The position numbers and the translations under genes were made by a program. A stretch of 64,000 bases of DNA from Promethearchaeati archaeon SRVP18_Atabeyarchaeia-1 (lineage in GTDB: Archaea > Asgardarchaeota > Atabeyarchaeia > Atabeyarchaeales > Atabeyarchaeaceae). The stretch spans positions 1,568,001 through 1,632,000 of the forward strand of contig CP147779.1 of NCBI GenBank assembly GCA_037308085.1, in the 5' to 3' direction. Positions 5,331 to 22,401 of this stretch are shown in pieces (positions within the stretch are counted from its first letter, which is position 1; every line of letters begins with the position of its first letter). Under the pieces are notes generated by a model. That model was given only the letters and a program-made list of their open reading frames with translations, searched no databases and was not told the origin of the DNA.

Positions 5331-5726
5331 ATGCCAAGAGGTTATCAAAAGACATCCACAACTATTTACCTGATGAACTACCACTTCGTGTGGAGCCCAA
5401 GATACAGGAGAAAACTGCTGGTCGGGAAGGTCGCCAAGAGGCTGGAGCACTTAATATACGAAAAGGCGAAACAACTGGAGTGCCGAGTTATCCAGCTAGG
5501 AATCATGCCTGACCATGTGCACCTCTTCATAGAGAGCAACCCGAGGATATCCCCAAACCGGGTCATAGGAGAGATGAAAGGCTACACATCACGGGTTCTG
5601 AGGCACGAGTTCCCAGAGCTGCTGAGGATGCCGACTCTATGGACAAGAAGCTACTTCGCCAGCACGGCAGAAAACGTAAGCTCAAAGATAATAGAGGAGT
5701 ACATTGAGGCTCAGAAAGGAGCTTGA
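5331..5726 (+). CDS. tnpA: IS200 Y1 (HUH) transposase
   Basis: YHFVWSPRYRR, DHVHL (HUH), LWTRSYF, EEYIEAQ. Confidence 0.96.
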   Translation: MPRGYQKTSTTIYLMNYHFVWSPRYRRKLLVGKVAKRLEHLIYEKAKQLECRVIQLGIMPDHVHLFIESNPRISPNRVIGEMKGYTSRVLRHEFPELLRMPTLWTRSYFASTAENVSSKIIEEYIEAQKGA

Positions 5727-5730
5727 AACC

Positions 5731-7056
5731 ATGCAGGTTACCAAGACCGTCAGGATACCTGTGCACTACTCAATAACGAGGCATAAGCTAGGCATCATAG
5801 ACAAGCTGACGGCCAGGTTGACTTGCGGGGTAGACTTGTGGTCACGGCTGATCGAGGAATACGGCATTAAAGAGAGGGGTAAGCTCAGAAGCCGCGCTTT
5901 TGAGGCTCAGGTGAAGGAGAGAACTGGTCTTGGGGCTGGTCTAGTCCAGTGCTGCGGGGATACTGCCCTCTGGATGTGGCGAAGCTACAGGGAGCTGCAT
6001 AGAGCCTGGGCGGAAGCAGTGGAGATGGCTGGGAGACGAAAGGAGTGGGAATGGCATGGGAAGCTCCTAAGGAGAGAACCCAGGAAACCGCTCACTAGCG
6101 GTCTCAGTCACAAGGTCCCAATCTGGTTCGACTACCGCGTAGGCAAGCTGGAGCACGCCAAGAGTATCAGGATCGCAAGTCACGTTATCCGCGTAGCTAC
6201 GCTGCGGAAAGGTGAATGGGTCACAATTCCGCTTAATGCTGCCCCTTATCATGCTAAGCTGCTTGAGCTGGGGACAGCCAAGAGCTTCCAAATCGTGAAG
6301 AAAGACTCCAAGTACTATGTCCATGTCAAGATTGATTATGACGTGCCGGATAGGCCTGTTGCGGGCGTTCTGGGCGTGGATCTGGGGGTTAAGCGCCAGG
6401 CGGCAACCGTGTTGCTGATCGGCGAGAAGCCCCGAATCACTCCACGGTCCTTCACGACAATCCGGGATGGAGAGAAGAGGCACCGCCTTGACAGGCTGAA
6501 CAGGCTTGTCTCCGACCTGCAGCAAGCAGGGAAGTACGATGCCCTGAGGCGGCTAAGGCACAAAAGGAAGCGCGTCGCAGAGCACTTCGACCGTGTATCC
6601 GCTGTGACGCTCGCCGACATGTCTGAGGGATGTCTCCTCGTCGTCGGCTACCCGAAGGGCATAAAATACAGGAGCTACAGGGGCAACGGCAAGAGAAAGC
6701 TGCGGAAGGCGCTGACGCGCTGGAGCTACGGCCGCATCATGCGGTTCACGGTGGAGGAGAGGGCTGAGAGAGGTCTTCCGACGTTGGTCGTTGATGAGCG
6801 GTGGACCTCCAGGACGTGCTGGAAGTGTGGCTCAAGGCAGACCCTCCGCTTGAACCAGTCGACCCTCTTCTGCCGGTGCTGTGGTATGACTTTCAACGCT
6901 GACTACAACGGTGCGTTGAACATCGGCCTGCCTTACTTGGCTAATGCCGCGGGTCGAGGGGCTGCAGATGAGCCAGCCCAGGAAACCGGGGATGAACAGG
7001 CAAGAGAAATAGTAGCCTGCAAGCCCGGAAGCCAACACCCTTCAAGGGGTTGGTAG
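5731..7056 (+). CDS. tnpB: TnpB RNA-guided nuclease
   Basis: RuvC-I GVDLG, VDERWTS, CWKC/CRCC zinc ribbon, RuvC-III NADYNGALNI. Confidence 0.93.
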   Translation: MQVTKTVRIPVHYSITRHKLGIIDKLTARLTCGVDLWSRLIEEYGIKERGKLRSRAFEAQVKERTGLGAGLVQCCGDTALWMWRSYRELHRAWAEAVEMAGRRKEWEWHGKLLRREPRKPLTSGLSHKVPIWFDYRVGKLEHAKSIRIASHVIRVATLRKGEWVTIPLNAAPYHAKLLELGTAKSFQIVKKDSKYYVHVKIDYDVPDRPVAGVLGVDLGVKRQAATVLLIGEKPRITPRSFTTIRDGEKRHRLDRLNRLVSDLQQAGKYDALRRLRHKRKRVAEHFDRVSAVTLADMSEGCLLVVGYPKGIKYRSYRGNGKRKLRKALTRWSYGRIMRFTVEERAERGLPTLVVDERWTSRTCWKCGSRQTLRLNQSTLFCRCCGMTFNADYNGALNIGLPYLANAAGRGAADEPAQETGDEQAREIVACKPGSQHPSRGW

Positions 7057-7081
7057 CTCACACTAGGAGTGTGTCACTTCG
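6900..7081 (+). ncRNA. Predicted TnpB omegaRNA (scaffold over the tnpB 3' end and right end, plus ~20-nt guide ACTAGGAGTGTGTCACTTCG)
   Basis: Inferred from established IS605 architecture; 5' boundary not visible. Confidence 0.55.
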
Positions 7082-7102
7082 TGATCCGGAGATGTGGAGT
7101 AG

Positions 7103-7366
7103 ATGGAAGGCAAATGCCCTTACTGTGATTCGGAAATCGCTTCCGATCAGATGGACGCTCACCTGAGAAAACACATATTGCCATTGCAGGCGAAAATCGA
7201 CAACGTGACAGTGGATTATGGAAATAGAGTGGCTTTTATTCACGTTGTCGTGGGAGAGAGGGGCAATGCCAAGGGCATTGACACCGCGGTCTCGCTGCCA
7301 CTGGAAATGAAGATACTTGGCAAGGTAGAAGTCGCGGGTTTTTCTTTTAGTCTATTACCCGACTAG
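7103..7366 (+). CDS. Small zinc-finger protein
   Basis: CPYC-x12-HLRKH C2H2-like motif; GGAG SD. Confidence 0.65.
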   Translation: MEGKCPYCDSEIASDQMDAHLRKHILPLQAKIDNVTVDYGNRVAFIHVVVGERGNAKGIDTAVSLPLEMKILGKVEVAGFSFSLLPD

Positions 7367-7511
7367 ATATTCACTTGACGAAACGTAGAGTGCAAGCCCA
7401 CGCTCTTTTGGGGTGGGTCCCAACGGTTCCTTAAATACTTTCTCGAGAATACCTGCCTATGCTCAGGACCTGAACTGCTCTGTTTAAGCCCAAAAGAGCA
7501 GGTGGAAAAGA

Positions 7512-7856
7512 ATGGGTAAGAGAAGCATAGTTGAATTGAGGTTCAAATTGGCCGATGGTTTAAGGGATAGGCTATTGAGGAAGCAGTTAGTGGATGAGAG
7601 TGTAGTCTGCTTGCAGAGCGATAATCAAATCATAGATTCTTATTTGCGCTGTGCAGATTGTGGAGAGAGGAATATCCCAGATAAAATTGTTGATTTGGTG
7701 TTAGAAGCAATGCAGAACTCTGTAGCTGTAGCTTTAGATGAGGTTGATCCAGCAGAGTTTGCAGATGTATTTCTGGAACTAATAGACGGCATCACTTATG
7801 AGGAAAGGACAAACACCCTATTTGTAGAAAAGAGACAGGATGATGATAAAGCTTGA
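7512..7856 (+). CDS. Hypothetical acidic protein with CxxC
   Basis: 114 aa ORF, AGGTGG SD, CADC. Confidence 0.6.
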   Translation: MGKRSIVELRFKLADGLRDRLLRKQLVDESVVCLQSDNQIIDSYLRCADCGERNIPDKIVDLVLEAMQNSVAVALDEVDPAEFADVFLELIDGITYEERTNTLFVEKRQDDDKA

Positions 7857-7946
7857 TAACTAAGCGAATCTTTGAGAAATAGAATAACACTCTTGAAAGA
7901 AATGAATGCCTCACCATCAACCTGACGTAGGGGATGCGATCAATAA

Positions 7947-8489
7947 ATGGCAAATAATAAACTTACTAACATTACTGCAGAACCAGGAGGACGAGAGATC
8001 GTCATCACCCGAGTCTTCGAAGCGCCGCGCGAACACGTGTTCAAGGCGTACACGGATCCGAATCTCATACCCCTATGGTGGGGTCCGAAAAAGTATGCTG
8101 CTACTGTTGACAAAATTCAGGTGAGCGCGGGGGGTGTTTGGCGATTCGTCCAGCGTGGACCCGACGGCAATGAGTACGCCTTCAACGGCGTGTATCACGC
8201 GATCGTGCCACCCGAGCGACTTGTCTCCACATTTGAATTCGAAGGTATGCCGGGTCATGTATCGCTTGAAACGGTGAAGTTAGAAGAGCAAGACGGCAAG
8301 ACAAAGCTCACGGCCACATCTGTCTTCCAAACGGTTGAAGATCGCGACGCGATGCTCAAGTCGGGAATGGAGGAAGGAGCGGTCGAGACCATGGATCGTC
8401 TTGCCGAACTTCTGCGAAAGCCTAAAGCGTTAACGAAAGAGAAAAGGGGTGAGTCTAGCCATGATCCCAATTCGAGGAGAGTGAGGTGA
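7947..8489 (+). CDS. SRPBCC/AHSA1-like protein
   Basis: EIVITRVFEAPREHVFKAYTDP...WWGP...GMEEGAVETMDRL. Confidence 0.92.
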   Translation: MANNKLTNITAEPGGREIVITRVFEAPREHVFKAYTDPNLIPLWWGPKKYAATVDKIQVSAGGVWRFVQRGPDGNEYAFNGVYHAIVPPERLVSTFEFEGMPGHVSLETVKLEEQDGKTKLTATSVFQTVEDRDAMLKSGMEEGAVETMDRLAELLRKPKALTKEKRGESSHDPNSRRVR

Positions 8490-8630
8490 GATTGCAGTCC
8501 ACAACTTCTAAGTAGAGCCACGTGGAATGATCCGTGAAGCAGTTTCGGGAGGAAACTGACAGTAGGAGAGTGCGCTCCTTTTTGGGAAAGACGGAACCGA
8601 AAGACTCAAAGACTCTACGGTATTTGAGTC
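8461..8630 (+). repeat. Long (170 bp) copy 1 of the dispersed hairpin repeat; core at 8598-8630
   Basis: 148/170 identical, ungapped, to 24211-24380. Confidence 0.92.
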
Positions 8631-8795
8631 CTATTCCGCGATACTTCTTTTTCGAGGCGGGGTCAACTTGACTAGCAAGAGAAACTACCCCTGACAATAA
8701 AGAAGGGATGCTAGCATGTGCCGCACGAGTGACGTCTTGTAGCCCCCTGCCCATGAAAATCAGGTCAGAAAAGAGCATTGAAAGCGTTCCATGCA

Positions 8796-9638
8796 CTAAG
8801 CAGGCTTTTCCTTATCCATCTCATCTAGCAAGACCTGTACATCGTCTTCGTCTAAAAGGTCAAACCTTGTTATTCTCCATTGGACTTTCCGACATATTGG
8901 AGTGCCTGGATATGCTCCAACATCGTACAGCTCGTAGTTTCGGAAGATTGTTGGCTTCTCTTGGTAGCATGTCCACACCGCCTTCTTTAAAGTATCAGTA
9001 TCTTCAACTCCTGTGAGATCTATGATTGCCACCTGTTTTCTAAACCTATCAACAGCTTCCATTGTGATGTTGAAAAGGTAAGGCTTGAGTGCCCTCGCAC
9101 CCTTTATGCGTCTTCCCTTGTCAAGCCCCTCTTCGATTAACGCCTTAATAGCCATCCCAGGCATATGCCCCTCAACGCCTCTCCCACATAGTACGAGGTA
9201 GCGTATGTTCGGGTTAGCAACGATATTCGCAATGATTTTCTCGATCCCGATGTTCGCTGTTTGCAGGGTTCCCGCTAGTGCTGCGCCGGACTCGATGGCA
9301 CTCCTTACAAGAGTTTCGATGCCACTGGGGATCTCGCCATAAGATGAACTTAGAAGGGTAATGACAGCTACTGGGGAGTAATCATTTCCTCGGAGATAGT
9401 GCCCATCCTCTGGAGGATAATCATCTGGAGGCTTAACCTTCCGTATCTCCTCAATAATCTCTATCGCTCCTTGAGGACACTTCTCCTCGCATCCTCCGCA
9501 TCTCGAGCATTTCTCCTCTGCCACTGGGACAGCTAGTTCTCTCTCACCGACGGTTCGAAATTCATAGATTCCTTGAGGGCAGGTGTCCACGCAGACGCCG
9601 CATCCCGAGCACTTGTCTTCGTCAACCTTGATCTTCAC
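8796..9638 (-). CDS. 2x[4Fe-4S] ferredoxin fused to a soluble MtrA-like corrinoid domain
   Basis: CSGCGVCVDTCP and CSRCGGCEEKCP, then TANIGIEKIIANIVANPNIRY...EGH; GTG start overlaps the upstream TGA (GTGA). Confidence 0.88.
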   Translation of the reverse strand: MKIKVDEDKCSGCGVCVDTCPQGIYEFRTVGERELAVPVAEEKCSRCGGCEEKCPQGAIEIIEEIRKVKPPDDYPPEDGHYLRGNDYSPVAVITLLSSSYGEIPSGIETLVRSAIESGAALAGTLQTANIGIEKIIANIVANPNIRYLVLCGRGVEGHMPGMAIKALIEEGLDKGRRIKGARALKPYLFNITMEAVDRFRKQVAIIDLTGVEDTDTLKKAVWTCYQEKPTIFRNYELYDVGAYPGTPICRKVQWRITRFDLLDEDDVQVLLDEMDKEKPA

Positions 9639-10363
9639 TGTCTCCCTGCGCCTCGCTCCCTCGCTGCCTTCTTGATGCGTTCGATTAGACTTAGCTCCTC
9701 GCTTGTCGTCTGGTACTTCCACGGTTCCTTGACCCTTACGGTTATCTTGGTACATATCGCTGGCTTGGGGTAGGCTCCTTCATCATGGAGAAGGTAGCCT
9801 CTGAACTCCACGGGCCTCCTGCTTCTGCACGCTGAGACAGCCTCCCTGACGTATTTAGCATTCATTCCGAGCCAGGGTTCATCCTCTGATATCAGGTTGA
9901 CAGGTTTAATCTGCTCCCTAAACCTCTCAGTTGCCTCTAGCGGCAGATTGTATAGGAATGGTGTTGGGGCCTCAGCCCCGATTATTCTTCGCTTCTCGTC
10001 CACTCCGTTCCCCAAGAGTTTCATAATCGCGTCCGCAGTCAAGTGGCCCGCAGACTCTCTCCAGCATATCACGAGGTATCGTATGTTCGGATTAGCCACA
10101 ACATTCGCAATGATTTTCTCGATCCCAATGTTCTCCGTCTGCACGCTTCCCGCAAGGGTAGCACCGCAGTCTATCGCGGTGCCAATGAGCTCGCTGAGTT
10201 CGACTGGAATATTAGATTCAAGTGTGTCAAGGATCGCCGCTACAGCAACCGGGGAATAATCATCTCCTCTAATGTATCTACCCTCTTCAGGCGGGTACCC
10301 TGGTGGCGGTTTGACCTTGGGGACATCCATACCACTATTCACGTCTACGTTATCACCTCTCAA
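9635..10363 (-). CDS. Soluble MtrA/MtxA-like corrinoid protein
   Basis: QTENIGIEKIIANVVANPNIRY...SAGH; no C-terminal TM anchor; start may be 10330. Confidence 0.88.
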   Translation of the reverse strand: MRGDNVDVNSGMDVPKVKPPPGYPPEEGRYIRGDDYSPVAVAAILDTLESNIPVELSELIGTAIDCGATLAGSVQTENIGIEKIIANVVANPNIRYLVICWRESAGHLTADAIMKLLGNGVDEKRRIIGAEAPTPFLYNLPLEATERFREQIKPVNLISEDEPWLGMNAKYVREAVSACRSRRPVEFRGYLLHDEGAYPKPAICTKITVRVKEPWKYQTTSEELSLIERIKKAARERGAGRQ

Positions 10364-10584
10364 TCTTGAATTTCAGCTCCTTATTTTTGGCGACTTAAAA
10401 ACCTGTGAAACAAAACGGCTGTCGACACTTGAAGAATAAACGCTATCACGACCACGAATGTTGATGGGTCCCAAATGACAGGACTGCAATTCCCAATGCT
10501 GTGGGCAGGTTCTTCATGCCAGAAGCGTAAGTCACTGAAATACCCTTTGCTCTATTGAAAATCTCTTTTCGGCGCGCATGGGCT

Positions 10585-10854
10585 CTATTCTTCTGCTTCA
10601 CTACGGATGGCATCTTCTAGCTTTTGTGCGTTGAACGTGAACTCGGTCATCTTGATGCCTCCGTTAACGACTACAGCCTTGGTTGACGTCAGACCATATT
10701 TCAAGGCTTCGTCGGAGAAAGCTTGCTTAACTTGGAAGTCAACCTGGCCCCTGAATTTCAAGACAACACTCCAGACCTTATCCATGAAGCTCTGCCAAGA
10801 ACACGCGCAGGCCCCAGTGGGAACAAACACTTCGACCCTGACCTTCTTATCCAT
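10585..10854 (-). CDS. Small thioredoxin-fold protein
   Basis: beta-strand then GACACS, AVVVNG; 89 aa. Confidence 0.7.
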   Translation of the reverse strand: MDKKVRVEVFVPTGACACSWQSFMDKVWSVVLKFRGQVDFQVKQAFSDEALKYGLTSTKAVVVNGGIKMTEFTFNAQKLEDAIRSEAEE

Positions 10855-10911
10855 AGTTTACTACCTTCCATATCCATCCTTTGCTGTCTACGGTTCTATC
10901 AATCAGGAGAC

Positions 10912-10935
10912 ACATATTTAAGTTTATAAATATGT
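10912..10935. promoter_or_regulatory. Putative ArsR operator 1
   Basis: ACATATTTA-N6-TAAATATGT perfect arms. Confidence 0.75.
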
Positions 10936-10949
10936 TTGGGTCACAAAAT

Positions 10950-10973
10950 ACATATTCAGATAGATGAATATGT
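10950..10973. promoter_or_regulatory. Putative ArsR operator 2
   Basis: ACATATTCA-N6-TGAATATGT perfect arms. Confidence 0.75.
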
Positions 10974-11048
10974 TCTTGCTTATGGAAATTAATTCAAACT
11001 AGATGCTTTGCATGCAACAAAGTAAGAGAAAAGAGGGATTGAGCTAAT

Positions 11049-11471
11049 TTGAGCGAGGAAGGCAAAGTTGTCGTCTTGGCCTGTAGTGGCATAGGTAAGG
11101 TTCTGGGGTCGATCACTCGCTTGGTCCTCTACCACATAATAGATGAAATGAGGAGGCAGAACACGACCACGACTTGTCTGCCACTGGTTGCGCTCAAGGA
11201 CAAAGAAGCCGTTGCGCTCGTCAGTAACCATCCATGCATAACTATTGACGGCTGCCCTAACAAATGTGCGAAGGTTTCTGCTGAGAACGCTGGTGCGACC
11301 GCGGTAAAGGCTTTCACTGTGGCCGAGTTCATGCGGAAGTTCAAAGACCTGAAGCCTTCAGCCGCTTCAGTGCTGGAGCCCGGACAAGGTGGAAGGGCAC
11401 TCGCGCGCAAGATTGCTGAACAAATAAGTCTGGAAGTCGACGAGCTATCAAACGAGAATGTCCGGTTTTGA
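11049..11471 (+). CDS. DGC-domain (putative Zn-binding) protein
   Basis: ACSG...TCL...IDGCPNKC. Confidence 0.88.
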   Translation: MSEEGKVVVLACSGIGKVLGSITRLVLYHIIDEMRRQNTTTTCLPLVALKDKEAVALVSNHPCITIDGCPNKCAKVSAENAGATAVKAFTVAEFMRKFKDLKPSAASVLEPGQGGRALARKIAEQISLEVDELSNENVRF

Positions 11472-11484
11472 GGAGGTCCCACGG

Positions 11485-11937
11485 TTGAGTGAGCATGGCG
11501 ATTGGATGCGCAATAAGGTTGGCGTGGTAACGTGCAGCGGAGAAGAAATCTCCGAGGGAATGGTCTCTAGAGTAGCTGCGAGAAAAGTCCTTGAAGAGCT
11601 CGAACCTAATGACACTATGACGATATGTATTCCTCTTTACTTGGCGGGAGGCGAGGAGGAGAGAAGCTTTGTAACAAAGTCCCCAACAGTCACAATTGAT
11701 GGTTGTGATAAGCTCTGTGCGAAAAGGAGTGTTGAGAAGGTTGGGGGTCGACCCATAGCGGCGGTTGTGGTTACTGACTTCATGAAGAGAGAACACGTCA
11801 AACTCAAGACAGAGTCGCGAAGGGAACTTGAGCCAAAGGGTGCAGAACTGGCAAACACCATTGCTTCCAAGGTCGCTGCCATTATCGAGGATTACGTGAA
11901 GGCTCAAGGCAGAGTGACTGGAAGAAGGGAGGGGTAG
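11485..11937 (+). CDS. Second DGC-domain protein
   Basis: TCSG...ICI...IDGCDKLC; GAGGAGG SD before TTG 11485. Confidence 0.88.
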   Translation: MSEHGDWMRNKVGVVTCSGEEISEGMVSRVAARKVLEELEPNDTMTICIPLYLAGGEEERSFVTKSPTVTIDGCDKLCAKRSVEKVGGRPIAAVVVTDFMKREHVKLKTESRRELEPKGAELANTIASKVAAIIEDYVKAQGRVTGRREG

Positions 11938-11941
11938 GAAC

Positions 11942-12397
11942 ATGGAGTTTCTTGAATTTACTATTGACAAATTCATCTTCAGAGTGGTCAAAGGCAACAA
12001 GTACTCTCAAGATGATGTCTGGCTTGCTAGTGCGGGTGAGAGAAGGTGGAGGATCGGGATAACTGACTTCCTTCAGAAAACGAGTGGCGACGCAGTAATT
12101 GCACAATTGCCAGATTTGGGCAGGACCTTTCAGAGGGGTAGCGAGGTGGCGCAGTTTGAAACTGTTAAGACTATCATCTCAGTTCCTATGCCCGTCACCG
12201 GCAAAGTTGTCGAAAGAAATGACAGGATTCTTGATGAGCCTGGGCTCTTGAACAGCGATCCGTATGGTAAAGGCTGGATAGTCACAGTTGAAGCGAGTAA
12301 CGTAGAGAAAGAGTTCAAGCACTTGCTCTCTGACAGCTCCTATTTTGAGTTAATGAAGAAAAAGGTCAGCGAGGTTCAATCCAAGCCGAGAAAGTAA
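11942..12397 (+). CDS. gcvH: GcvH-like lipoyl carrier protein
   Basis: IGITDF, ETVKT (lipoyl Lys), NSDPYGKGWI. Confidence 0.9.
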   Translation: MEFLEFTIDKFIFRVVKGNKYSQDDVWLASAGERRWRIGITDFLQKTSGDAVIAQLPDLGRTFQRGSEVAQFETVKTIISVPMPVTGKVVERNDRILDEPGLLNSDPYGKGWIVTVEASNVEKEFKHLLSDSSYFELMKKKVSEVQSKPRK

Positions 12398-12472
12398 ACA
12401 TGTCAATATAACATTGTCTCTTGGATCATCGTGTCTATTCCAGAGCCAGATATGTAGGGGTGGTGTTAGTTC

Positions 12473-12898
12473 TTGCCAGTCTACAGAACTAAGGTAACTT
12501 GGTTGGGCGGGAATACTGGTAGCCTTGAGTGTGGGAATGGCACCCGAATGGATTTTAGCGCTCCTCCAAGCCTCCACGGCAAACATGGGGTGATGACTCC
12601 GGAGGATGGTTTCGTGGCTTCGCTGAACATGTGCGTGCACATGATGTTTATTTGGGTCGCAGAGAGGATGAAGATAGAACTTCTGTCTTATGAGTGTGAA
12701 GCGGAGGGGACAGTTCAGGACAGACTTGATAGGACATCCGTCTTTACGAAGCTGATTTTGAGACCAAGAATAGTAGTTAGGATGGCGACAGAAGAGAAGG
12801 TCAAACAGGCGATGCAGCTAGCGAGGAAATTCAGTCTAGTGGCAGAATCAATAAGACCTGAGGTAGTCATTGAGCCCGAGGTAACAATTAAGCGTTAA
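12473..12898 (+). CDS. OsmC/Ohr family protein
   Basis: TPEDGFVASLNMC; position of the second Cys appears to be Ser (KFSLVAES). Confidence 0.85.
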   Translation: MPVYRTKVTWLGGNTGSLECGNGTRMDFSAPPSLHGKHGVMTPEDGFVASLNMCVHMMFIWVAERMKIELLSYECEAEGTVQDRLDRTSVFTKLILRPRIVVRMATEEKVKQAMQLARKFSLVAESIRPEVVIEPEVTIKR

Positions 12899-13103
12899 CA
12901 CTCCTCTCACCGTATTAACCAGAGTCGCACCTGCTATATATGTGAAGGTCATCTATACGAGCCAGTAGAAGCAGGAGTCTTTGGTGTCTTTGCCTTGGTT
13001 ACGCCCGCTATTTGCGCATCATACCCAAATTTCGTTATTGTGGTGGTCAGCGGATGCGTCAAGTACGAACCTAAGAAGTTCTGAAGAAAACCAATATGGC
13101 GTG

Positions 13104-13820
13104 TTACCCTGTTCCTCTTCTTATCATCTCTGCATACTCGTGTGGTAACTCTGAAGCCTCGATGGCGCTCGTCATTCTTTCCACATCATATTGAACTCTC
13201 CTAAAACCTATGCTCAACTCTTCAGCTGGAGTCAAGAGAGCGTAAGTTGCCCTTGGGTCACCATCCTTGGGCTTTCCGAGACTTCCGACGTTTACGACAT
13301 GCTTATCGTCTATCACCTTGTGGTAGGGCAGATGCGTATGTCCACACACGAGGAGATTGCATCCTCCTGCCTGCAGGAGGCGATTGAAGGTCTTCGCTGG
13401 TCTGTCCTCGTATAGGTACTCATTAATCCTTCTGGGGCTACCATGAGTGAGAAGGATCTCGAATGCCTCTTGGCTGAAGCGTAGCTCGCGCGGCAGGGTC
13501 CTCAGGAATTCCTTGTTCTCCCTTGTGACGTGGGTCTTCGTCCAATCTAGGGAGCGGTGACCGAGCAATCTCTGCGTTTCGTCTGTATAAGCGCACCCAC
13601 AGTCGTCTCTCTCAAAGCCGACACCTTCATCATAGTTGCCCATCACACCTGCGATTCCCTTGCTCCTTATGCTGCTTATCACTTCATTTGGAAAGGGGCC
13701 GTATCCAACAAGGTCCCCACAGTGGAGGATCTTGTCAGCGCCTTGCTCTTCAATGTCAAGGAGAACCGACTCAAGGGCGGGAAGGTTGCTGTGAACATCG
13801 GAGAAAATCGCGTACTTCAT
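13104..13820 (-). CDS. Calcineurin-like metallophosphoesterase
   Basis: SDVHSN, GDLVGYG, GNYD, CGC insert, HGSP, GHTH. Confidence 0.92.
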   Translation of the reverse strand: MKYAIFSDVHSNLPALESVLLDIEEQGADKILHCGDLVGYGPFPNEVISSIRSKGIAGVMGNYDEGVGFERDDCGCAYTDETQRLLGHRSLDWTKTHVTRENKEFLRTLPRELRFSQEAFEILLTHGSPRRINEYLYEDRPAKTFNRLLQAGGCNLLVCGHTHLPYHKVIDDKHVVNVGSLGKPKDGDPRATYALLTPAEELSIGFRRVQYDVERMTSAIEASELPHEYAEMIRRGTG

Positions 13821-13844
13821 GGGGGGTGACCATCTCGAGTTTCT

Positions 13845-14234
13845 CTACTTCAGCGATTCCAGTTTCTTCATGGTCTCAACAATCTTTGGGTTTGCAAGGG
13901 AATAGTAAGCCCACTTCCCTTCTTTCCTTCTTTCTAGCAAACCCTCCTTCTCCAACAGCACTAGGTGGTGAGACGCAGTTGGTTGTGTCATGTCCAATGC
14001 AGCCATTATCTCGCAAACGCACATCCTGCGAACCATTAATAACTTCAATATTCTAATTCTGCTGTCGTCACTTAGAGCTTTGAAGAGCCGGCTTTCTCTG
14101 ATGGCTAAATCCTTGTTCGCTACCTTGGCAGCCAACTCCTTCAACTCATTCGCGTATCTGGAAGCATCTTTGCCCTGGCAATAGGGCGAAGCAACCAACC
14201 TAACCAGTCTCCTGTCAGAATGACTCTTCGACAT
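13845..14234 (-). CDS. arsR: ArsR/SmtB metalloregulator
   Basis: FKALSDDSRIRIL...MCVCEI...QPTASHHL; CVC As(III) motif. Confidence 0.92.
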   Translation of the reverse strand: MSKSHSDRRLVRLVASPYCQGKDASRYANELKELAAKVANKDLAIRESRLFKALSDDSRIRILKLLMVRRMCVCEIMAALDMTQPTASHHLVLLEKEGLLERRKEGKWAYYSLANPKIVETMKKLESLK

Positions 14235-14253
14235 GTTCTCATCCACTGCTAGT

Positions 14254-14277
14254 TCATATCTGCGAGACCAAATATGT
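14254..14277. promoter_or_regulatory. Putative ArsR operator 3, upstream of arsR
   Basis: TCATATCTG-N6-CAAATATGT; same CATAT-N12-ATATG spacing. Confidence 0.6.
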
Positions 14278-14487
14278 ATTTTGCCGGAAGGCAACTTCAG
14301 CCGCTTGAGCTATTGAAGCACCTTGACCCCATAAAGATCTGTGAAACGGCCAGCGCCGCGTTCCCCCCTATTTCTGTCGGTGACGGTCTGCCCCTCCTCT
14401 GAGCATTGTTCCAAACCAGTATCTATGTTAATCTCTTGTCGCTTCTGTGCCGATCATAATAAGATATATATGTCACTTCTTGCGGAT

Positions 14488-14511
14488 TCATATTAATAAA
14501 TCTAAATACGT
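14488..14511. promoter_or_regulatory. Putative ArsR operator 4, upstream of acr3
   Basis: TCATATTAA-N6-TAAATACGT. Confidence 0.6.
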
Positions 14512-14531
14512 AAATATGAACCTAGATAGCG

Positions 14532-15620
14532 GTGTGGAACATGCCTGAGAAATCCTTGAAGAAACTTTCGCTGATCGATAGGTTACTTCCGATCTGGATT
14601 TTTCTTGCGATGGCTATCGGCGTGGGAGCAGGGTGGGCATTCCCACAGATTGCGACGATTTTTAACATGCTCCAGATAGGAACGGTTTCGCTTCCCATTG
14701 CGATCGGATTGCTGTGGATGATGTATCCTCCCCTTGCTAAGGTGAAGTATGAGGAGCTCGGGAAGATTAAGGGTGCGAAGAAAATGTTTGGAGTGTCGCT
14801 CTTCCTAAACTGGGTAATTGGACCTTTCCTCATGTTTTCGCTGGCCTGGCTCTTTCTGCCTGATCTGCCTGATTATAGGGTTGGTATCATCATAGTTGGG
14901 TTGGCTAGATGCATTGCGATGGTCTTGATATGGAACCTGCTTGCAGGCGGTGATAGTGAGTATGCCGCTGTCTTGGTTGCTCTCAATTCGATCTTCCAGA
15001 TGGTGTTCTACTCGATCTACGCCTACTTCTTCGTGACCTTGCTCTCCTCTTGGGTAAGCGGGTCTGCGGGCATGGTCGTGAATATCTCGGTTTGGAGTAT
15101 CGCGCAGAGCGTTTTGATCTTTCTCGGTCTTCCTTTCGCCGCCGGAATAATCACTAGGTTCACGTTGATCCACAGAAAGGGGAAGGTATGGTATGAAGAG
15201 AAATTCATTCCGAGGCTGAGCCCCACCGCAATCATCGGCCTCCTCTTCACAATAGTCGTAATGTTCTCCATGAAAGGTGAGTACATATTGAATTTGCCTT
15301 TTGATGTGCTCAGGGTTGCCGTCCCTCTGGCGTTGTATTTTCTGATAATGTTTTTCACTTCTTTTCTCCTGTCTTGGCGCTTGAGGTTCAGTTATCCTGA
15401 AACGGCGACGCTCTCCTTTACCGCTGCGAGCAACAACTTTGAGCTTGCGATAGCTGTAGCTGTCGGGGTGTTCGGGATAAACTCGGGGCAGGCTTTCGCC
15501 GCAGTCATAGGGCCTCTAATCGAAGTTCCGGTGCTTATCGGCCTAGTCTACGTTTCACTCTGGCTAAAGACCAAGATGTTCGCCAAGGCGAGAAGATCTG
15601 GGATGAGTGGCAAGACCTAA
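14532..15620 (+). CDS. acr3: Acr3 arsenite efflux transporter
   Basis: [34 protein letters not shown]. Confidence 0.96.
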
Positions 15621-15722
15621 GAGCGATGCTGCAAGCCTGAAAGCCAACGGTAGCTTAGTCTGAATCTGAAGGACGGAACGGGTGGGAGAGGCAAGGACGC
15701 TCAACTTCAGCGAGGACTCCGT

Positions 15723-15760
15723 CGAAAGACTCAAAGACTCGCCGGTGAAAAGCGCGCGCT
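15723..15760 (+). repeat. Truncated copy of the hairpin repeat plus AGCGCGCGCT
   Basis: CGAAAGACTCAAAGACTCGCCGGT. Confidence 0.8.
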
Positions 15761-15901
15761 CCGTTTCTGGAAAACTCTGAATATGTGAGAGTGTCTAACA
15801 AGTTTTCCTCAATGAAGAAAGAAAGAGTGAGTGGCTTTTAGGTTCACACTTCCGTAACCCTAATCCTTTCTGGTAGGTAGCGCGCGCTATGAGGGCTAAA
15901 T

Positions 15902-17095
15902 CTAATCGTGTAGAGTAATAGCGACTGGTATCAAAAGGATGAATGCTGCGCCAGTAAAAAGGAAGGTCATATTGATGCTCATGAACCCCATTAGCACACC
16001 AGCCATCAATGGGCCAAGCGTATAGCCTACGTCTTTGAATGCGGCTATCGCCCCAGTCATGGCCACCTTGTTTTCCCCGAGCGTATCAGACATCCTCGAG
16101 TATAACACTATGAAGATCATGGTATAGCTTACTGTAAAAGCAGTCAAGATTGCCATCGTATAGTATATGCTACTCGCGAAAGGTATTATGCTGCTTGGCA
16201 ACGGTATCAGGATCGCAGTGACGGTTGTGAATACTGTCGCCACTATCAGCGTCCTGCGTACGCCAAATCTGTCCACCGCGTTTCCCATCGGTACTTCGAG
16301 AGCAACGGCAGGCAAGAGAGCCACCGTAAGTAATGTACCGATTGTAGGAATAGGGATTCCTTCACTGTAGAGGAGTACCGATAGGAATGAGTAATAAACG
16401 TTGATCAAAGCATAGAACACGACTGTTAGAAAAATAGTCTTTATGAATCGTCTATTACGCATATACTTGAATAGTGTCGCGGTTTGACGACTCGAATGTG
16501 CTCTCTGAGATCTAGGTATATTCTTCAAGAAGATTGAGATCACAAGGAATGCGGTAAAGCTTGTTAGACTAAGCAAATAGAACGGTAGTGAGAATGAAAT
16601 GATAGTGACGAGGCCTCCTATGATGGGGAATATGGCTGAGGCTAGATCATTCATGTCGGAGAAGAATCCGGTTTCCTTTCCCTTTACCTCCTTTTCGGCA
16701 TAGCTGAAGATGTAAGCCCACGAAGTTAGCCAGAGGAAAGATGATGCAACTCCCCTAGTGACACTTACCAGCAGTAGTGGCAGGAAGGAATTTGCCACAG
16801 TATACAGTAATGCAAGGATGGAGTAAACGAGTAACACCACTTGGAGAACTCGTTTCATATTTATCCTGTTCTCTGCGAGACCGACGGGTATATTGAGGAA
16901 TATTCCCATCATTGTTGTCAGTGAAAGAATAACGCCAGTCATGAACAGATCTCCAGTCACGTTCTGTATATATATCGAGAAAACTGGTGAGGCAATTCCC
17001 CAACCGCCAGTGTAGACAAAAAACGCGACCGAGACTGGCAATATTACCCTTTTGAAATTGGTGATATGCCGTAACTCGCTGAACTCCTTGAACAT
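15902..17095 (-). CDS. MFS transporter
   Basis: About 12 TM segments; GNAVDRFGVRR MFS loop motif. Confidence 0.88.
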   Translation of the reverse strand: MFKEFSELRHITNFKRVILPVSVAFFVYTGGWGIASPVFSIYIQNVTGDLFMTGVILSLTTMMGIFLNIPVGLAENRINMKRVLQVVLLVYSILALLYTVANSFLPLLLVSVTRGVASSFLWLTSWAYIFSYAEKEVKGKETGFFSDMNDLASAIFPIIGGLVTIISFSLPFYLLSLTSFTAFLVISIFLKNIPRSQRAHSSRQTATLFKYMRNRRFIKTIFLTVVFYALINVYYSFLSVLLYSEGIPIPTIGTLLTVALLPAVALEVPMGNAVDRFGVRRTLIVATVFTTVTAILIPLPSSIIPFASSIYYTMAILTAFTVSYTMIFIVLYSRMSDTLGENKVAMTGAIAAFKDVGYTLGPLMAGVLMGFMSINMTFLFTGAAFILLIPVAITLHD

Positions 17096-17334
17096 ATGAA
17101 ACACCGAGACAGCTTGGTAGGTAACGTGTGCACATAAATATTGCTTTTCGAAATTCGCCTCTCTGTATCTAGCCAGCAAAATAACGAGAAGAACCAAGGA
17201 GTCGCATAACTGCTCAGTTCTGCACAATGTCTACTTGAGTGCCTTTTGCTGAGTGCAGATGCCATTGCCTATCCCAAGAACCCCGTATATGAGGCTAGTT
17301 GCGGGAAACTGCGTATGGACAGAGAGCGCACCAG

Positions 17335-17400
17335 CGAAAGACTCCAACACTCAACGGTATTTGAGTCTAGTTCTGCCGGCATCCTCTTTTAGCGCGCGCT
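17335..17400 (+). repeat. Hairpin repeat copy plus AGCGCGCGCT
   Basis: CGAAAGACTCCAACACTCAACGGTATTTGAGTCTAGTTC. Confidence 0.85.
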
Positions 17401-17553
17401 GCGCAGATTGCAGTGAAAGCTGGAATCGACTCAACAAAATGAAGTCTAGTATACTGAATGCAACTTATGGCAACTTGAAGAAACCTCTACCATTTTGCAG
17501 TGTTCAGGATAGCCGCGGGGTCATGCTATGGTGGGCAAAGCCCATGATCTTAT

Positions 17554-18596
17554 CTAGGGTTTCGAACGATTCCCACGCGCGTTAAGAGAGTTCAATTTAT
17601 CTCTGAAGATTTTGAGAGACTCGTGATCTGTGAGCACGTAGACCAGATCTCCTTCCTCAAGCTGAAAGTCGTCTACCATATCAGTCATGCTCTCACCGTT
17701 TCTGTAGACAAGCAGGATAGGGCAGATTCCCATGATGTCTCTGTACTGGATTCCAGAGTTTCTTATTCTGAACTCGGCAACGTGCCTCGACTTCAAGTTG
17801 TCTGTAAGGAAGACACCAGCTACCTCCTTTGAACTGGAAGACAATGCAAGTATTTGCCCCGTAATCTCGGAAAACGGGATTACTATGTCAGCACCCGCAT
17901 CCCTCACACCTTTCACTAACTCTCTGTCGTTGACTATGGAGACAGTTCTAATGCTGTTATTGAGCTTCTTTGCCATCATAACTGTCAGCATGTTGTCACC
18001 GTCGTCTTCTAACGTGGATAGTAGGGTGGATGCTTTCTCAACGTTTGCATCCTTAAGCGCCTCATAAACGTTGGTTATAGGCGCGAACATACCTGGAATG
18101 TTACGGGACCTCAGAAGGTCGAGCTGGCTCTCGTCTCTGGCGATAACGATGTATTCGAGTTTGAGTGACTAATGCTCTCCACCACGTATTTCCCTAAGAA
18201 CATGTAACCAACCACGATTACGTGGTTCTCCATCCTCTTCGCCAGTTTCTGGCTCAGCTCCTCGGTCATAAGCCCCTTCTTAATGGTTGCGGAGACAGTT
18301 ACTTGAAGGAGAGACGCGGCTGAACCCACGGCTATGATGAAGACGAATATGAGTAGAACCTTTTCCGTGCTGACCATAGTAACTATGTTGGGCGCGTAGA
18401 TACCGATGGTCGTGATTGTAGAGATCGAGCCTAGAAGGGCGGTCAGAAAGTCTAGCCCCTGATAGTACATGAATATCAGCGCCCCAATCAAGAACATTGA
18501 GAAGAGTATAGTGAGTTGAATCCAGACGCGCTTAAGGATGTAGTACGGCGCGTAGACTGCGATGTCGAGCGTTCTTCTTAGCCTTTTCGCTTTCAA
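17554..18596 (-). pseudogene. K+ channel/TrkA-RCK domain gene split by a frameshift near 18170
   Basis: Pore-like TITTIG plus NHVIVVGY in one frame; continuation KLEYIVIARDESQLDLL...MFAP in another frame. Confidence 0.8.
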
Positions 18597-18949
18597 ATTC
18601 TCGCGTTTCCCGCTCGTTTCCTAGGGGTAGAATTCACGAATCTTTCAACGTGTTCCTGCGTCCACAATGCCCGTCCACTTTTCTTACGACCTTCAAACCT
18701 GCAGTTGCATTCAGAAACTCCGCGCAGCCGTACAAAGTTTTCCGGATAACCTTGGTCTTACCAATCGCACTTGGCTTCTATTATTCACTTCGATGTACTT
18801 CTTTCATGGATTCCTTTCGTCCATGGTCATGGGCAGCAGTCATCAGCGCTCGCGATCAGCAGTAGAATGGAATGGCACCAAGAGCGATGAGAGGAATTGC
18901 CAGAAAGGTGTAACGCTGGCGCGCGTTACGTGCTGCTTGTTCAGCTTGG

Positions 18950-19348
18950 TCAGGTGAGATTCTTCACTTGGTGTGCAAGGATTCCTCTATATCTCGAAGC
19001 ACATTTACGTTCTTCAGAGGAGGCTCTTCTTGCAGCCCACTCTAGAAGCGGAGTGATTGATTTCCTGAGTTCCGTTCCGTCGGTGGTAAGTGAGTATTCT
19101 ACACGGGGAGGTATCTCCGAAAAGGCTTCTCTCCTGATTATGCCTTCACCTTGAAGTCCTTTCAACGTGTCAGATAGGGTTTTGGGGCTGATGCCACCCA
19201 ACTCTTCCATGAGCCCATTGAACCTGAGCCTCCCATTATTGCCGATAGCGTTGACGACCAGGAGCGCCCACTTCTTGCCTATAACATCTATGACGCCTTC
19301 AAGAGGGCAGAGGCATACATGATCACCATTTTCACACATACTAATCAC
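18950..19348 (-). CDS. HxlR family winged-helix regulator
   Basis: CPLEGVIDVIGKKW...RFN...ISPKTLS...IPPRVEYSLT. Confidence 0.93.
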   Translation of the reverse strand: MISMCENGDHVCLCPLEGVIDVIGKKWALLVVNAIGNNGRLRFNGLMEELGGISPKTLSDTLKGLQGEGIIRREAFSEIPPRVEYSLTTDGTELRKSITPLLEWAARRASSEERKCASRYRGILAHQVKNLT

Positions 19349-22207: not shown

Positions 22208-22401
22208 GAGACAGAGCCAACCTGATATTTGACAAGAATTGAGGATAAGAATGTTAGAGTCTGGGGATTCAATACGGTCCTAACTGTGCATATAACGTTT
22301 TCAAGCGCGCGATTTATCTCTTTTTCTTCTGCTGCTTCCTGCTGCTACGTTGAAGCGCTCTACTAGGATAACTACGATGATGGCTCAGTCAGGGACTGCA
22401 C

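Follow-up and report, generated by a model that had tools for sequence, protein, structure and literature searches.

The window, i.e. the whole stretch of DNA that was analysed (64,000 nucleotides), belongs to the genome of a wetland archaeon. Searches against Pfam and NCBIfam recovered, in a single block, all ten genes that an earlier note made from the sequence alone had named: those for a ferredoxin-fused MtrA-like protein (Fd-MtrA), a second MtrA-like protein, a thioredoxin-like protein, two DGC-domain proteins, GcvH, OsmC, a metallophosphoesterase, ArsR and Acr3 (Table 1). As the note had also stated, none of the ten genes matches arsC, arsM or mtrB-H in either collection. The acr3 gene is the only one in the genome, where a single match was obtained.

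Table 1. Features of the ars-linked block and its surroundings (positions in the window)
Feature	Position	Strand	Details
Left copy of direct repeat	8460..8631	+	172 nt, hairpin-forming core
Whole block	8796-15620		ten genes (Pfam + NCBIfam)
Fd-MtrA (type II)	8796..9638	-	N-terminal 2x[4Fe-4S] ferredoxin + soluble MtrA-like cobamide domain
MtrA-like protein (type I)	9635..10363	-	242 aa, soluble; PF04208 137 bits
Thioredoxin-like protein	10585..10854	-	89 aa, GACAC motif; first gene of Trx-MtrA-FdMtrA unit
Two exact operator-like palindromes, ACATATT-N10-AATATGT	10912-10935, 10950-10973		Trx-MtrA-FdMtrA / DGC-DGC-GcvH-OsmC divergent promoter
DGC-domain protein 1	11049..11471	+	PF08859 56.6 bits
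DGC-domain protein 2	11458..11937	+	PF08859 65.1 bits
GcvH-like lipoyl carrier protein	11942..12397	+	PF01597 106.9 bits
OsmC/Ohr-family thiol peroxidase-like protein	12473..12898	+	PF02566 52.6 bits
YfcE-type metallophosphoesterase	13104..13820	-	DDCGCAY insert; PF12850 96.9 bits
ArsR/SmtB repressor	13845..14294	-	MCVCEI motif; NF033788 96.1 bits
Operator-like palindrome, 2 mismatches	14254..14277		~20 nt upstream of probable arsR start
Operator-like palindrome, 2 mismatches	14488..14511		upstream of acr3
Acr3 arsenite efflux permease	14532..15620	+	TIGR00832 438.5 bits (cut-off 282.8)
Short repeat copy	15720..15757	+	directly downstream of acr3; 92% over 24 nt

Two metagenome loci of about 80% identity, L004 and L090, were used for comparison, the latter holding the same ten genes. 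The thioredoxin-like protein gave only weak SaoT/TsoX matches in NCBIfam, falls in the same cluster as Thioredoxin_3 / MTH895-ArsE-type neighbour proteins and is 79% identical to the L090 gene at the corresponding position. As for DGC protein 1, it displays a C...C...DGC...C pattern in which three Cys are invariant and the fourth is present in at least 90% of sequences, the four forming a putative Zn site. For DGC protein 2, the AF2 model (pLDDT 84.8) shows an alpha/beta fold of a generic, flavodoxin-like kind to which nothing in the PDB clearly corresponds. The GcvH-like protein scores 102 bits against TIGR00527, under the cut-off of 115.85, and retains the lipoyl-Lys motif ETVKT in its translation. 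The metallophosphoesterase gene, predicted to be co-transcribed with arsR, has a counterpart in L090, and its product is 82% identical to that of the L004 gene located between arsR and the MtrA pair. ArsR has a CVC As(III) site of the classical type. Judged by its counterparts in L004 and L090, it probably starts at ATG 14234 and is 129 aa long.

The repeat on which the earlier note had remarked is real, with copies on both sides of the block, but it is not spread genome-wide: all five matches to its core in the genome lie within 8.6-25.2 kb of the window. Its fold is no better than that of shuffled sequence. Both block edges are bridged by contigs from two independent wetland metagenomes, with no differences or one single-base gap, and the block is therefore not an assembly chimera.

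By their sequences, the two MtrA-like proteins represent two old subtypes, type I and type II. The ferredoxin fusion described previously was found in type II, i.e. Fd-MtrA, where a 2x[4Fe-4S] ferredoxin and PF04208 (150.8 bits) occur in a single protein, together with matches to Fer4 families in Pfam and 176.9 bits against NF002126 (cut-off 161). Its longest open reading frame extends to ATG 9755; the most likely start is nevertheless GTG 9638, overlapping the stop codon of the upstream gene and giving about 280 aa, because all 11-12 close homologues begin there. Without exception, the 12 homologues compared share the cobalt-ligand His and the eight Cys that make up the two CxxCxxCxxxCP motifs. 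Concerning type I, the AF2 model (pLDDT 82.6) has 5laa as best Foldseek match (E 2e-16, TM by target 0.89), and H107, E77 and N78 are, by alignment to 5LAA, the equivalents of the MtrA residues His84, Glu54 and Asn55 (PMC4915002). The His84 equivalent is present in both proteins, as had been claimed, and is invariant in the conservation tables, whereas Glu54 is retained in type I and replaced by Ala in type II (QTAN). In MtrA, this Glu bonds to the cobalt-ligand His, and corrinoid proteins that take part in methyl transfer typically have a His-on ligand (PMC4915002). Sequences and models thus suggest that both proteins are loaded with cobamide.

The same Rossmann-type fold, at about 39% identity, is found in methanogen MtrA and its cytoplasmic homologues (PF04208; 5LAA, 5L8X, 8Q3V; PMC4915002); like the latter, the proteins studied here are soluble. 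They make up a clade of their own, set apart from mtr-operon-type MtrA by a long branch (99% SH-aLRT), reach only 133-142 bits against the MtrA equivalog TIGR01111 (cut-off 249), bear an 11-residue insert and possess, in place of the membrane anchor, a family-specific C-terminal extension of about 55 residues (GA[YW]P...C; about residues 185-242 in type I), while their genes adjoin ars genes and not mtrB-H. No ars-specific Cys cluster or triad was found in the MtrA-like domain when sequences with and without ars context were compared: C179 is conserved regardless of that context and C204 occurs in about half of the sequences.

The gene-neighbourhood search proposed in the earlier note covered 76 genome loci with a gene of this MtrA-like subfamily. 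About 15 lineages of archaea and bacteria are represented, among them Bathyarchaeia, Nitrososphaeria, Asgard lineages, ANME-1, Hadarchaeota, Planctomycetota, Auribacterota and Chlamydiota. ArsR, Acr3, ArsP, ArsM or ArsC lies within 5 kb in 48 of the loci, mostly on the same strand; where 4 kb or more of sequence is available to either side, this holds for 18 of 26 loci. ArsR is the most frequent (39 loci), followed by ArsP (28), Acr3 (27), ArsM (14) and ArsC (7), and 43 of the 47 neighbouring ArsR proteins have a CxC As(III) site. By our rough estimate, an acr3 would fall within 10 kb by chance in less than 1% of cases. The ars label is scattered over many clades of the MtrA tree, and gene orders vary among loci. 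The association of the subfamily with arsenic genes is real, and a literature search yielded no paper describing it, in agreement with the previous statement that no ars system of such composition has been characterised. Accessory neighbours include ArsP_1 permease, MTH895/ArsE-type thioredoxin, DGC, ArsF-like and ArsG-like proteins and FMN reductase, and minimal ArsP-MtrA-ArsR operons occur in Nitrososphaeria. No MT1/MT2-type methyltransferase partner is consistently co-encoded among the loci, the immediate neighbours being variable. About a third of the relatives have no ars neighbours. The Chloroflexota members of the family are located inside CODH/ACS clusters, which points to a methyl-carrier role.

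Each of the two divergent promoters of the block contains an ArsR-type palindrome, the search giving 11 matches at no more than 3 mismatches vs. 1.43 expected, and the corresponding promoters of L004 and L090 have it too. In L004, it lies in the acr3/arsR intergenic region, at the same position relative to arsR as in the block, the acr3 site having 1 mismatch; in L090, exact palindromes are found in both promoter regions and nowhere else in the locus. Also, arsR and the genes for the metallophosphoesterase, MtrA and Fd-MtrA follow each other head to tail on one strand of L004, overlapping or with short gaps, which is consistent with one operon. The MtrA pair and the DGC-GcvH-OsmC genes apparently share an operator with arsR/acr3, and all would be under ArsR control in vivo. 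Among RNA runs, none contained this DNA.

In at least eight lineages, a type I gene and an Fd-type II gene are found on the same contig; the stop and start codons of the pair overlap, and in one protein, P0124, type I and type II are naturally fused. Complex prediction for the two gave a score of 0.43 (best control 0.00), the runs having 69% or more of contacts in agreement and the partner a pLDDT of at least 82. This support is weak: in the benchmark, solved complexes reached the mark in 58 of 80 cases and mismatched pairs in 2 of 110, and among those reaching it a score of 0.60 or lower was given by just 7 of the 80 solved complexes and by both mismatches. Type I and type II probably work as a heteromer.

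Among known systems, the Hg(II)-methylating pair HgcAB, in some organisms linked to ArsR (bioRxiv 10.1101/2022.10.17.512643), shares with the MtrA-like pair the cofactor logic of a corrinoid carrier and a dicluster ferredoxin electron donor, the association with ArsR-type regulators or ars genes and the want of a dedicated methyl-loading enzyme in the locus. The parallel drawn in the earlier note is no more than an analogy, as the corrinoid domain here has the MtrA fold, not a CFeSP-like one, His and not Cys as cobalt ligand, and no transmembrane domain; the ferredoxin part of Fd-MtrA reaches 42.6 bits against HgcB (cut-off 99) and 47.6 against HgcAB-like proteins (cut-off 285). With ArsM (SAM-dependent) and ArsI (an O2-dependent C-As lyase), the MtrA-like genes have operon neighbours in common (ArsR, Acr3, ArsP, thioredoxin-like), and these enzymes act on the substrate class proposed for the pair. 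There is, however, no sequence or fold relation, the MtrA-like domain is devoid of an As(III)-binding Cys triad or pair, and cobamide would replace SAM or Fe(II)/O2. The same accessory genes also recur in predicted arsR-arsP-arsE(Trx)-DGC organoarsenical operons and ArsEFG, such as the ArsR5-ArsP-ArsE-DGC operon described in P. mercurii ND132; these contain no corrinoid protein, GcvH or OsmC, and the window has Acr3 and no ArsP.

The block may represent an ArsR-controlled arsenic-detoxification island in which B12-dependent methyl transfer has arsenic as methyl partner, a reading that we put forward tentatively, as quite possible though short of probable. McrA was not found in the genome, so that the host is not a methanogen. 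The operon for the thioredoxin-like, type I and type II proteins would be one module, added beside Acr3, and DGC-DGC-GcvH-OsmC a second, thiol/lipoyl one. Type I and type II would act as soluble, probably heteromeric cobamide (B12) carriers, whose 2x[4Fe-4S] domain would keep cobalt as Co(I) or return it to that state. Methylarsenicals, with their arsenic held by vicinal thiols of the DGC, thioredoxin-like and lipoyl-GcvH proteins, could then be demethylated independently of O2 by methyl transfer to Co(I), and the arsenite produced would exit via Acr3. ArsI, ArsH and ArsV, the known MAs(III)-degrading enzymes, require O2, and O2-independent demethylation of methylarsenicals is an open niche for such a system. 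Methylotrophic methanogens are documented to demethylate DMAs(III) anaerobically, an activity ascribed to corrinoid methyltransferases, with no enzyme known for it (PMC10579292; bioRxiv 10.64898/2026.08.27.747368). Given the relatives in ars operons of many oxygen-avoiding microbes, the pair points to a B12-dependent step of arsenic handling that is as yet undescribed.

We slightly favour demethylation; the reverse reaction, in which CH3-Co(III) passes its methyl to As(III), comes close to it in likelihood, and pulling a methyl cation off trivalent methylarsenic is, in our assessment, chemically awkward, which counts against the former. Type II, without its His-tuning Glu, may be no methyl carrier at all. 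The ArsM genes near 14 loci also speak against this main reading, since methylation and demethylation would be co-encoded, as does a study of probably the very same genome, in which the genes were read as C1 metabolism (PMC11291895).

The earlier note had first named SAM-independent methylation of arsenite by a corrinoid route. That the pair replaces ArsM in this way, CH3-Co(III) methylating As(III) and the product being exported, appears fairly unlikely. The chemistry is classical, McBride and Wolfe having reportedly observed in 1971 that methylcobalamin methylates arsenic, non-enzymatically and in cell extracts; ArsP, of the methylarsenite exporter type, is the second-commonest neighbour, and the Nitrososphaeria operons would be a complete methylate-and-export route. 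The genome, however, has its own true ArsM about 170 kb from the block (as well as two LMWP-type candidate ArsC genes), and the 14 loci mentioned encode true ArsM, over the NF008823 cut-off, within 5 kb of the MtrA-like gene, directly beside it (within 400 nt) in five and 1.4 kb from the pair in L004, the closest relative. The lack of arsM in the block, recorded in the earlier note, is therefore no argument for such a substitute, and the proposal is weakened. Moreover, ArsP was not found in the genome, which would leave the product without a dedicated exporter, and the block encodes no methyl-loading enzyme.

Reductive B12/Fe-S chemistry, by which pentavalent arsenicals or oxides would be reduced or C-As bonds cleaved and trivalent products exported, is unlikely as well. 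Fd-MtrA has the cofactor set of QueG and reductive dehalogenases (RdhA), cobamide plus 2x[4Fe-4S], in a different fold, and the Glu stabilising His-on Co(III) has been lost from type II; the rarity of ArsC and the organoarsenical-type neighbours (ArsF-like, ArsG-like, FMN reductase) would fit, and one reductase would suit Acr3-only and ArsP-only operons alike. Yet the MtrA-like proteins have an invariant His, in contrast to the base-off, His-off QueG and RdhA, and most of them have neither a ferredoxin domain nor an adjacent ferredoxin; besides, As(V) is already easily reduced by thiol chemistry, and the CODH/ACS-located relatives indicate methyl carriage.

Finally, a methyl carrier of C1 metabolism with no part in arsenic chemistry, feeding H4MPT/Wood-Ljungdahl metabolism in the way published for MtrA-like genes of Asgard archaea or serving as an arsenic-insensitive spare and placed among ars genes by stress regulation or hitch-hiking, is improbable, even though MtrA/MtrH homologues of non-methanogens have been read as methyl-transfer remnants (PMC11291895, PMC9635834), the genome holds one MtrAH fusion and two further MtrH genes, the Chloroflexota relatives lie in CODH/ACS clusters, three pair lineages adjoin feoAB without ars genes, and GcvH could likewise be a spare lipoyl protein. 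Hitch-hiking is hard to invoke for a 63% ars linkage over about 15 lineages with shuffled gene orders, and the pair is not present in same-genus or same-family genomes and is therefore not core metabolism. To our knowledge, many Planctomycetota hosts lack the Wood-Ljungdahl pathway; furthermore, the MtrA-like genes are embedded on the same strand among ars genes, and the pair shares its operator with acr3/arsR in three loci.

The gene content that the earlier note had read between 8796 and 15620 is borne out by the list of open reading frames and by Pfam and NCBIfam scans: ten genes are present, from the ferredoxin-MtrA fusion (Fd-MtrA) to acr3, and their matches include no arsC, arsM or mtrB-H, as had been stated. 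Neither a SAM-methyltransferase fold with an As(III) cysteine site nor a VOC dioxygenase fold (ArsM/ArsI type) was found among the ten products in these scans. The permease is a member of the ACR3-family arsenite efflux permeases (TIGR00832, 438.5 bits vs. a cut-off of 282.8), encoded by the single acr3 of the 2.81-Mb genome, and the regulator is an ArsR/SmtB repressor with an As(III)-binding cysteine site (NF033788, 96.1 bits), the CVC of its MCVCEI motif lying in the DNA-binding region. As for start codons, that of Fd-MtrA should be revised to the GTG at 9638, a position that is the start in all 11 close homologues of the fusion protein and that overlaps the stop of the upstream gene, and comparison with orthologues makes the ATG at 14234 the most likely start of arsR.

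Direct-repeat copies and the ten genes of the island, in window coordinates
Feature	Position	Strand	Unit	Remark
Direct-repeat copy	8460-8631	+		
Ferredoxin-MtrA fusion	8796-9638/9755	-	1	
MtrA-like gene	9635-10363	-	1	
Thioredoxin-like gene	10585-10854	-	1	
DGC	11049-11471	+	2	
DGC	11458-11937	+	2	
GcvH	11942-12397	+	2	lipoyl-lysine motif kept
OsmC	12473-12898	+	2	
YfcE-type metallophosphoesterase	13104-13820	-	3	
arsR	13845-14294	-	3	
acr3	14532-15620	+		
Direct-repeat copy	15720-15757	+		
Direct-repeat copy	17332-17369	+		
Direct-repeat copy	22399-22436	+		
Direct-repeat copy	24210-24381	+		
Direct-repeat copy	25145-25182	+		

Concerning the DGC protein, its AF2 model (pLDDT 84.8) had only weak flavodoxin-like matches in the PDB by Foldseek (best E 9e-3, TM ≤0.44), and a profile search of PDB sequences gave no match; neither provided a functional clue. 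The Rfam scan of the whole window returned no match, and a sigma-70 promoter and terminator scan, whose model is not applicable to archaea, found fewer matches than in shuffled sequences. Just upstream of the block lies a gene of the AHSA1/SRPBCC family (7947-8489), the 3' end of which overlaps the left repeat copy; this family is often found alongside ArsR-type regulators.

Both MtrA-like proteins are soluble and match PF04208 (MtrA) with 150.8 and 137 bits, vs. a gathering cut-off of 25. The AF2 model of the 242-aa protein (pLDDT 82.6) has 5laa_A as its top Foldseek match (E 2.2e-16, TM by target 0.89), and alignment to cobalamin-bound 5LAA places H107, E77 and N78 on His84, Glu54 and Asn55, which in MtrA ligate the cobalt, hydrogen-bond to that ligand and contact the corrin, respectively (PMC4915002). 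The ligand histidine is invariant in the 84 subfamily sequences (84/84), and Fd-MtrA retains it, with an alanine at the Glu54 equivalent. From these residues, both proteins are predicted to bind a cobamide. No ars-specific cysteine cluster able to bind As(III) was found in the MtrA-like domain.

The subfamily differs from canonical MtrA: the two window proteins stay below the equivalog level of TIGR01111 (142.3 and 133 bits vs. 249.15), and its members carry an 11-residue insert and end in a hydrophilic C-terminal extension of about 55 residues instead of a membrane anchor. A subunit of the MtrA-H complex would have mtrEDCB-FGH neighbours and a methanogen host, whereas the window block has no mtr genes and the genome no McrA. 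Likewise, HgcAB combines a CFeSP-like domain, a cysteine ligand, a transmembrane domain and the C-terminal cysteine pair of HgcB, whereas the corrinoid domain in the window is of the MtrA type; the HgcB model reached 42.6 bits vs. 99 and the HgcAB-like model 47.6 vs. 285, covering the ferredoxin part alone. In the MtrA phylogeny proposed earlier as a check (91 domains, quick IQ-TREE search), the subfamily forms a separate long-branched clade apart from the mtr-operon-type MtrA sequences in that tree.

Within the clade, the two window proteins do not stem from a recent duplication. The unfused one is of type I (QTEN ... CWRES-GH) and clusters with ferredoxin-fused proteins of Bathyarchaeia, Sifarchaeota and Thorarchaeota, and the fused one is of type II (QTAN ... 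CG-x4-GH), near the base of the clade with proteins of Chloroflexota. A type I and an Fd-type II gene occur on the same contig in at least eight metagenomic lineages, and in a database protein of 473 aa (P0124) types I and II are naturally fused in that order. Complex prediction for the two types points weakly in the same direction, with a score of 0.43 (best control 0.00). Of 80 solved complexes, 58 reached that mark, as did 2 of 110 mismatched pairs, but just 7 of the 80 complexes, and both mismatches, did so with scores of 0.60 or below; different runs share at least 69% of their contacts, and partner pLDDT is 82 or higher. A heteromer of type I and Fd-type II, in which the fused 2x[4Fe-4S] domain would supply electrons, is probable. 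Some bacterial MtrA-like proteins (437-458 aa; L079 4141-5900 and L082 2058-4207) have an additional Cys-rich domain at the C-terminus, and after them come one or two small paralogues of this domain with the motif C-x-K-T-A-G-x-C-K-I-G-P-x-C; these paralogues have no Pfam or NCBIfam match.

The distribution of arsenic genes around the subfamily was surveyed in 76 loci, obtained by a pattern-plus-tblastn scan with one genome per species, and in four control loci with canonical-type-scoring MtrA genes (37-40% identity; two with tandem mtrA copies). Flanks were annotated with HMMs built from clustered neighbours, representatives of which were checked against Pfam and NCBIfam, and MtrA copies were called with a domain-only HMM; true two-copy loci are few. 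ArsR, Acr3, ArsP, ArsM or ArsC lies within 5 kb in 48 of the 76 loci, and in 18 of the 26 whose flanks reach 4 kb or more in each direction, vs. none of the four mtr-type controls. The closest homologues are therefore not usually away from ars genes, and the recurrent linkage sought in the earlier note is present. The most frequent neighbour is ArsR (39 loci), followed by ArsE-type thioredoxin (29), ArsP_1 permease (28), Acr3 (27), ArsG-like proteins (16), DGC and ArsM (14 each), ArsF-like proteins and FMN reductase (9 each), CMD/AhpD-like proteins and ArsC (7 each), and GcvH and DUF169 (6 each). If a genome has one or two acr3 genes, the chance of finding one within 10 kb is estimated at below 1%. 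A CxC site is present in 43 of the 47 adjoining ArsR proteins.

Genes in the linked loci are mostly on one strand and closely packed, with orders such as ArsR>ArsP>FMNred>MtrA-like>CMD>ArsM>Acr3>Trx>ArsF>TrxL>ArsG in a Planctomycetota and ArsP>MtrA-like>ArsR in a Nitrososphaeria example. The hosts include Bathyarchaeia, Nitrososphaeria, several Asgard lineages, ANME-1, Hadarchaeota, Planctomycetota, Auribacterota and Chlamydiota, among others. Gene orders vary, and since the ars label requires at least 11 changes on the tree, the association was not inherited as a single block. Together with the subfamily, the DGC-DGC-GcvH-OsmC unit is found again in five other loci (L017, L038, L049, L074 and L090), and in a further one (L092) DGCx3-GcvH-MtrA-FdMtrA are tightly packed on one strand, which fits a single operon.

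Ars neighbours are missing in about a third of the loci, many of which are on short contigs. Three lineages with the pair have it directly downstream of DtxR-feoA-feoB (including L006 4333-9541 and L091 579-5504), with no ars genes in view; one FeoB of these loci has an intein. In two Chloroflexota MAGs, one of Dehalococcoidia and one of Anaerolineae (L031 9309-10600 and L039 546-7172), CODH/ACS genes surround the MtrA-like gene, which overlaps the stop of the gene for the ACS beta C-terminal domain; its product may be a corrinoid methyl carrier for ACS, replacing or beside CFeSP. Downstream of the Thorarchaeota Fd-MtrA genes is a VOC/glyoxalase-fold gene (L014 7085-7522, with equivalents in L015, L016 and L036) with a faint ArsI/CadI-family match (E 3e-4); other ars genes were not detected in three of these four loci, the exception being L015, with an ArsR at a distance of about 2.6 kb.

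A palindrome, ACATATT-N10-AATATGT, is shared by the promoters of the island. Two exact copies (10912 and 10950) lie where the promoters of the Trx-MtrA-FdMtrA unit and of the DGC unit diverge, and copies with two mismatches are found at 14254, some 20 nt ahead of the probable arsR start, and at 14488, upstream of acr3. Allowing up to three mismatches, the 64-kb window holds 11 occurrences vs. 1.43 expected. In L004, a metagenome locus with about 80% identical proteins, arsR-MPE-MtrA-FdMtrA (MPE, the metallophosphoesterase) run head to tail on one strand, as fits one operon, and the only two matches with up to two mismatches are both in the acr3/arsR intergenic region. All ten island genes are present on the independent contig L090, where the only two matches are both exact, one between acr3 and arsR and the other between DGC and Trx-MtrA. 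This is good comparative evidence, at the sequence level, that a single regulator, most simply ArsR, would control all four units.

As to the chemistry, a His-on ligand is typical of methyl-transfer corrinoid proteins (PMC4915002), and the Chloroflexota relatives, whose CODH/ACS clusters would be expected to include a methyl carrier, point to a methyl-carrier role; the ars context would make arsenic the methyl partner. B12-dependent methyl transfer with arsenic as partner is the reading that we favour, at somewhat less than an even chance. A reductive mechanism for the pair stays alive because type II lacks the glutamate that tunes the histidine ligand and carries a cofactor set like that of QueG and RdhA. 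No methyl-loading or -unloading enzyme is consistently co-encoded, the immediate neighbours being variable. A simple substitute for ArsM, in line with the SAM-independent methylation that had been suggested, is argued against by true ArsM genes within 5 kb in 14 loci.

If methyl transfer to or from arsenic is at work, demethylation feeding Acr3 is slightly preferred, since the genome has ArsM and ArsP was not found in it, ArsM is so often a close neighbour, and an O2-free demethylase would fill a vacant niche. To our knowledge, all characterised methylarsenite-degrading enzymes require O2. Methylotrophic methanogens are documented to demethylate DMAs(III) anaerobically, an activity attributed to corrinoid methyltransferases, with no enzyme identified (PMC10579292; bioRxiv 10.64898/2026.08.27.747368). 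The vicinal thiols of the DGC-DGC-GcvH-OsmC unit could present or buffer arsenic, or alternatively OsmC and the lipoyl protein could form a peroxidase couple. We propose, as a possibility that is less likely than not, that the MtrA-like family is the first cobamide-dependent arsenic system, either an O2-independent methylarsenic demethylase or a reversible B12-arsenic methyl exchanger, in which type I would be the carrier and Fd-type II its activator, with DGC and lipoyl-GcvH as thiol helpers and ArsR as the switch.

No description of a link between MtrA or corrinoid proteins and ars genes was found in full-text literature searches, which miss most subscription journals, the only related idea there being the HgcAB-ArsR connection. 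MtrA homologues of non-methanogens have been treated as methanogenesis remnants or as C1 methyl transfer (PMC9635834, PMC11291895), and in a complete Asgard (Atabeyarchaeia) genome, which the present one matches in its two MtrA-like copies, MtrAH fusion and single contig and which is probably the same, these genes were read as C1 methyl transfer, arsenic never being mentioned (PMC11291895). If the proposal is true, the "MtrA" genes of Asgard archaea, Bathyarchaeia and other non-methanogens need rereading; at minimum, the subfamily is a widespread part of ars systems that has gone unrecognised. In anoxic soils and sediments, the methylation of arsenic and its reversal control arsenic toxicity and mobility as well as rice straighthead disease, and a B12-binding family in ArsR-linked operons of archaea and bacteria, in roughly two thirds of its sampled loci, is a clonable candidate for the missing anaerobic demethylation. 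The window offers a compact test set of three small operons, one candidate operator motif and one regulator.

The earlier note had the block flanked by two copies of a dispersed repeat. The flanking copies are there; the repeat is not dispersed, as the five genome matches to its hairpin core are all on the plus strand of one 17-kb stretch (8.6-25.2 kb of the window). Since the core is so confined, the region from 8.5 to 25 kb may be one acquired island carrying its own repeat, the two longest copies (172 nt, 87% identical) enclosing 15.7 kb. The predicted fold of the repeat is no better than that of shuffled sequence (z -0.69), and a reading of the repeat-bounded units as integron cassettes was set aside, no integrase being seen and the units being long and of mixed orientation.

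Upstream of the island is an IS200/IS605 element (5331-7056), in which the Y1 transposase gene tnpA (5331-5726) overlaps that of a TnpB/Cas12f-like protein (5704-7056); its right end (about 7017-7060) is a break point of Logan contigs. Both 7033-9917 and 15200-19007 are spanned by contigs from two independent wetland metagenomes, with 0 differences (record 8) and one single-base gap (record 13), so that the arrangement of the block is not an assembly artefact. In two wetland metagenomes, the DGC2-GcvH-OsmC-MPE-arsR segment (11476-14145) has 3-5 times the depth of its flanks and a second contig set with many single-base differences (95-99% likeness); a more abundant relative seems to have this segment in common, while neither the MtrA pair nor acr3 is shared at that identity.

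Genomes of the same genus and the same family yielded no MtrA-like pair. A true ArsM (313 bits) is encoded about 170 kb from the block and about 120 kb past the window (G000:C1:1751948-1752670), and the genome has two LMWP-type phosphatase/ArsC candidates. In L004, an ArsM-HxlR pair (10974-12441) is 1.4 kb from the MtrA pair, which suggests that the ArsM locus and the MtrA island of the genome were once one locus. The 253-aa SAM methyltransferase downstream of the block (23378-24139) is not the counterpart of the methyltransferase adjoining acr3 in L004 (27% identity). The only other MtrA match of the genome is a 510-aa MtrA-MtrH fusion (G000:C1:238496-239935; L003 505-2037), besides which there are two MtrH genes; as McrA was not found in the genome, the host is a non-methanogen with several orphan methyl-transfer modules. 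Its genome, a single contig, is found in wetland and freshwater-sediment metagenomes and is otherwise anaerobe-like, with a full-length catalase at 1027-2502 of the window (625 bits).
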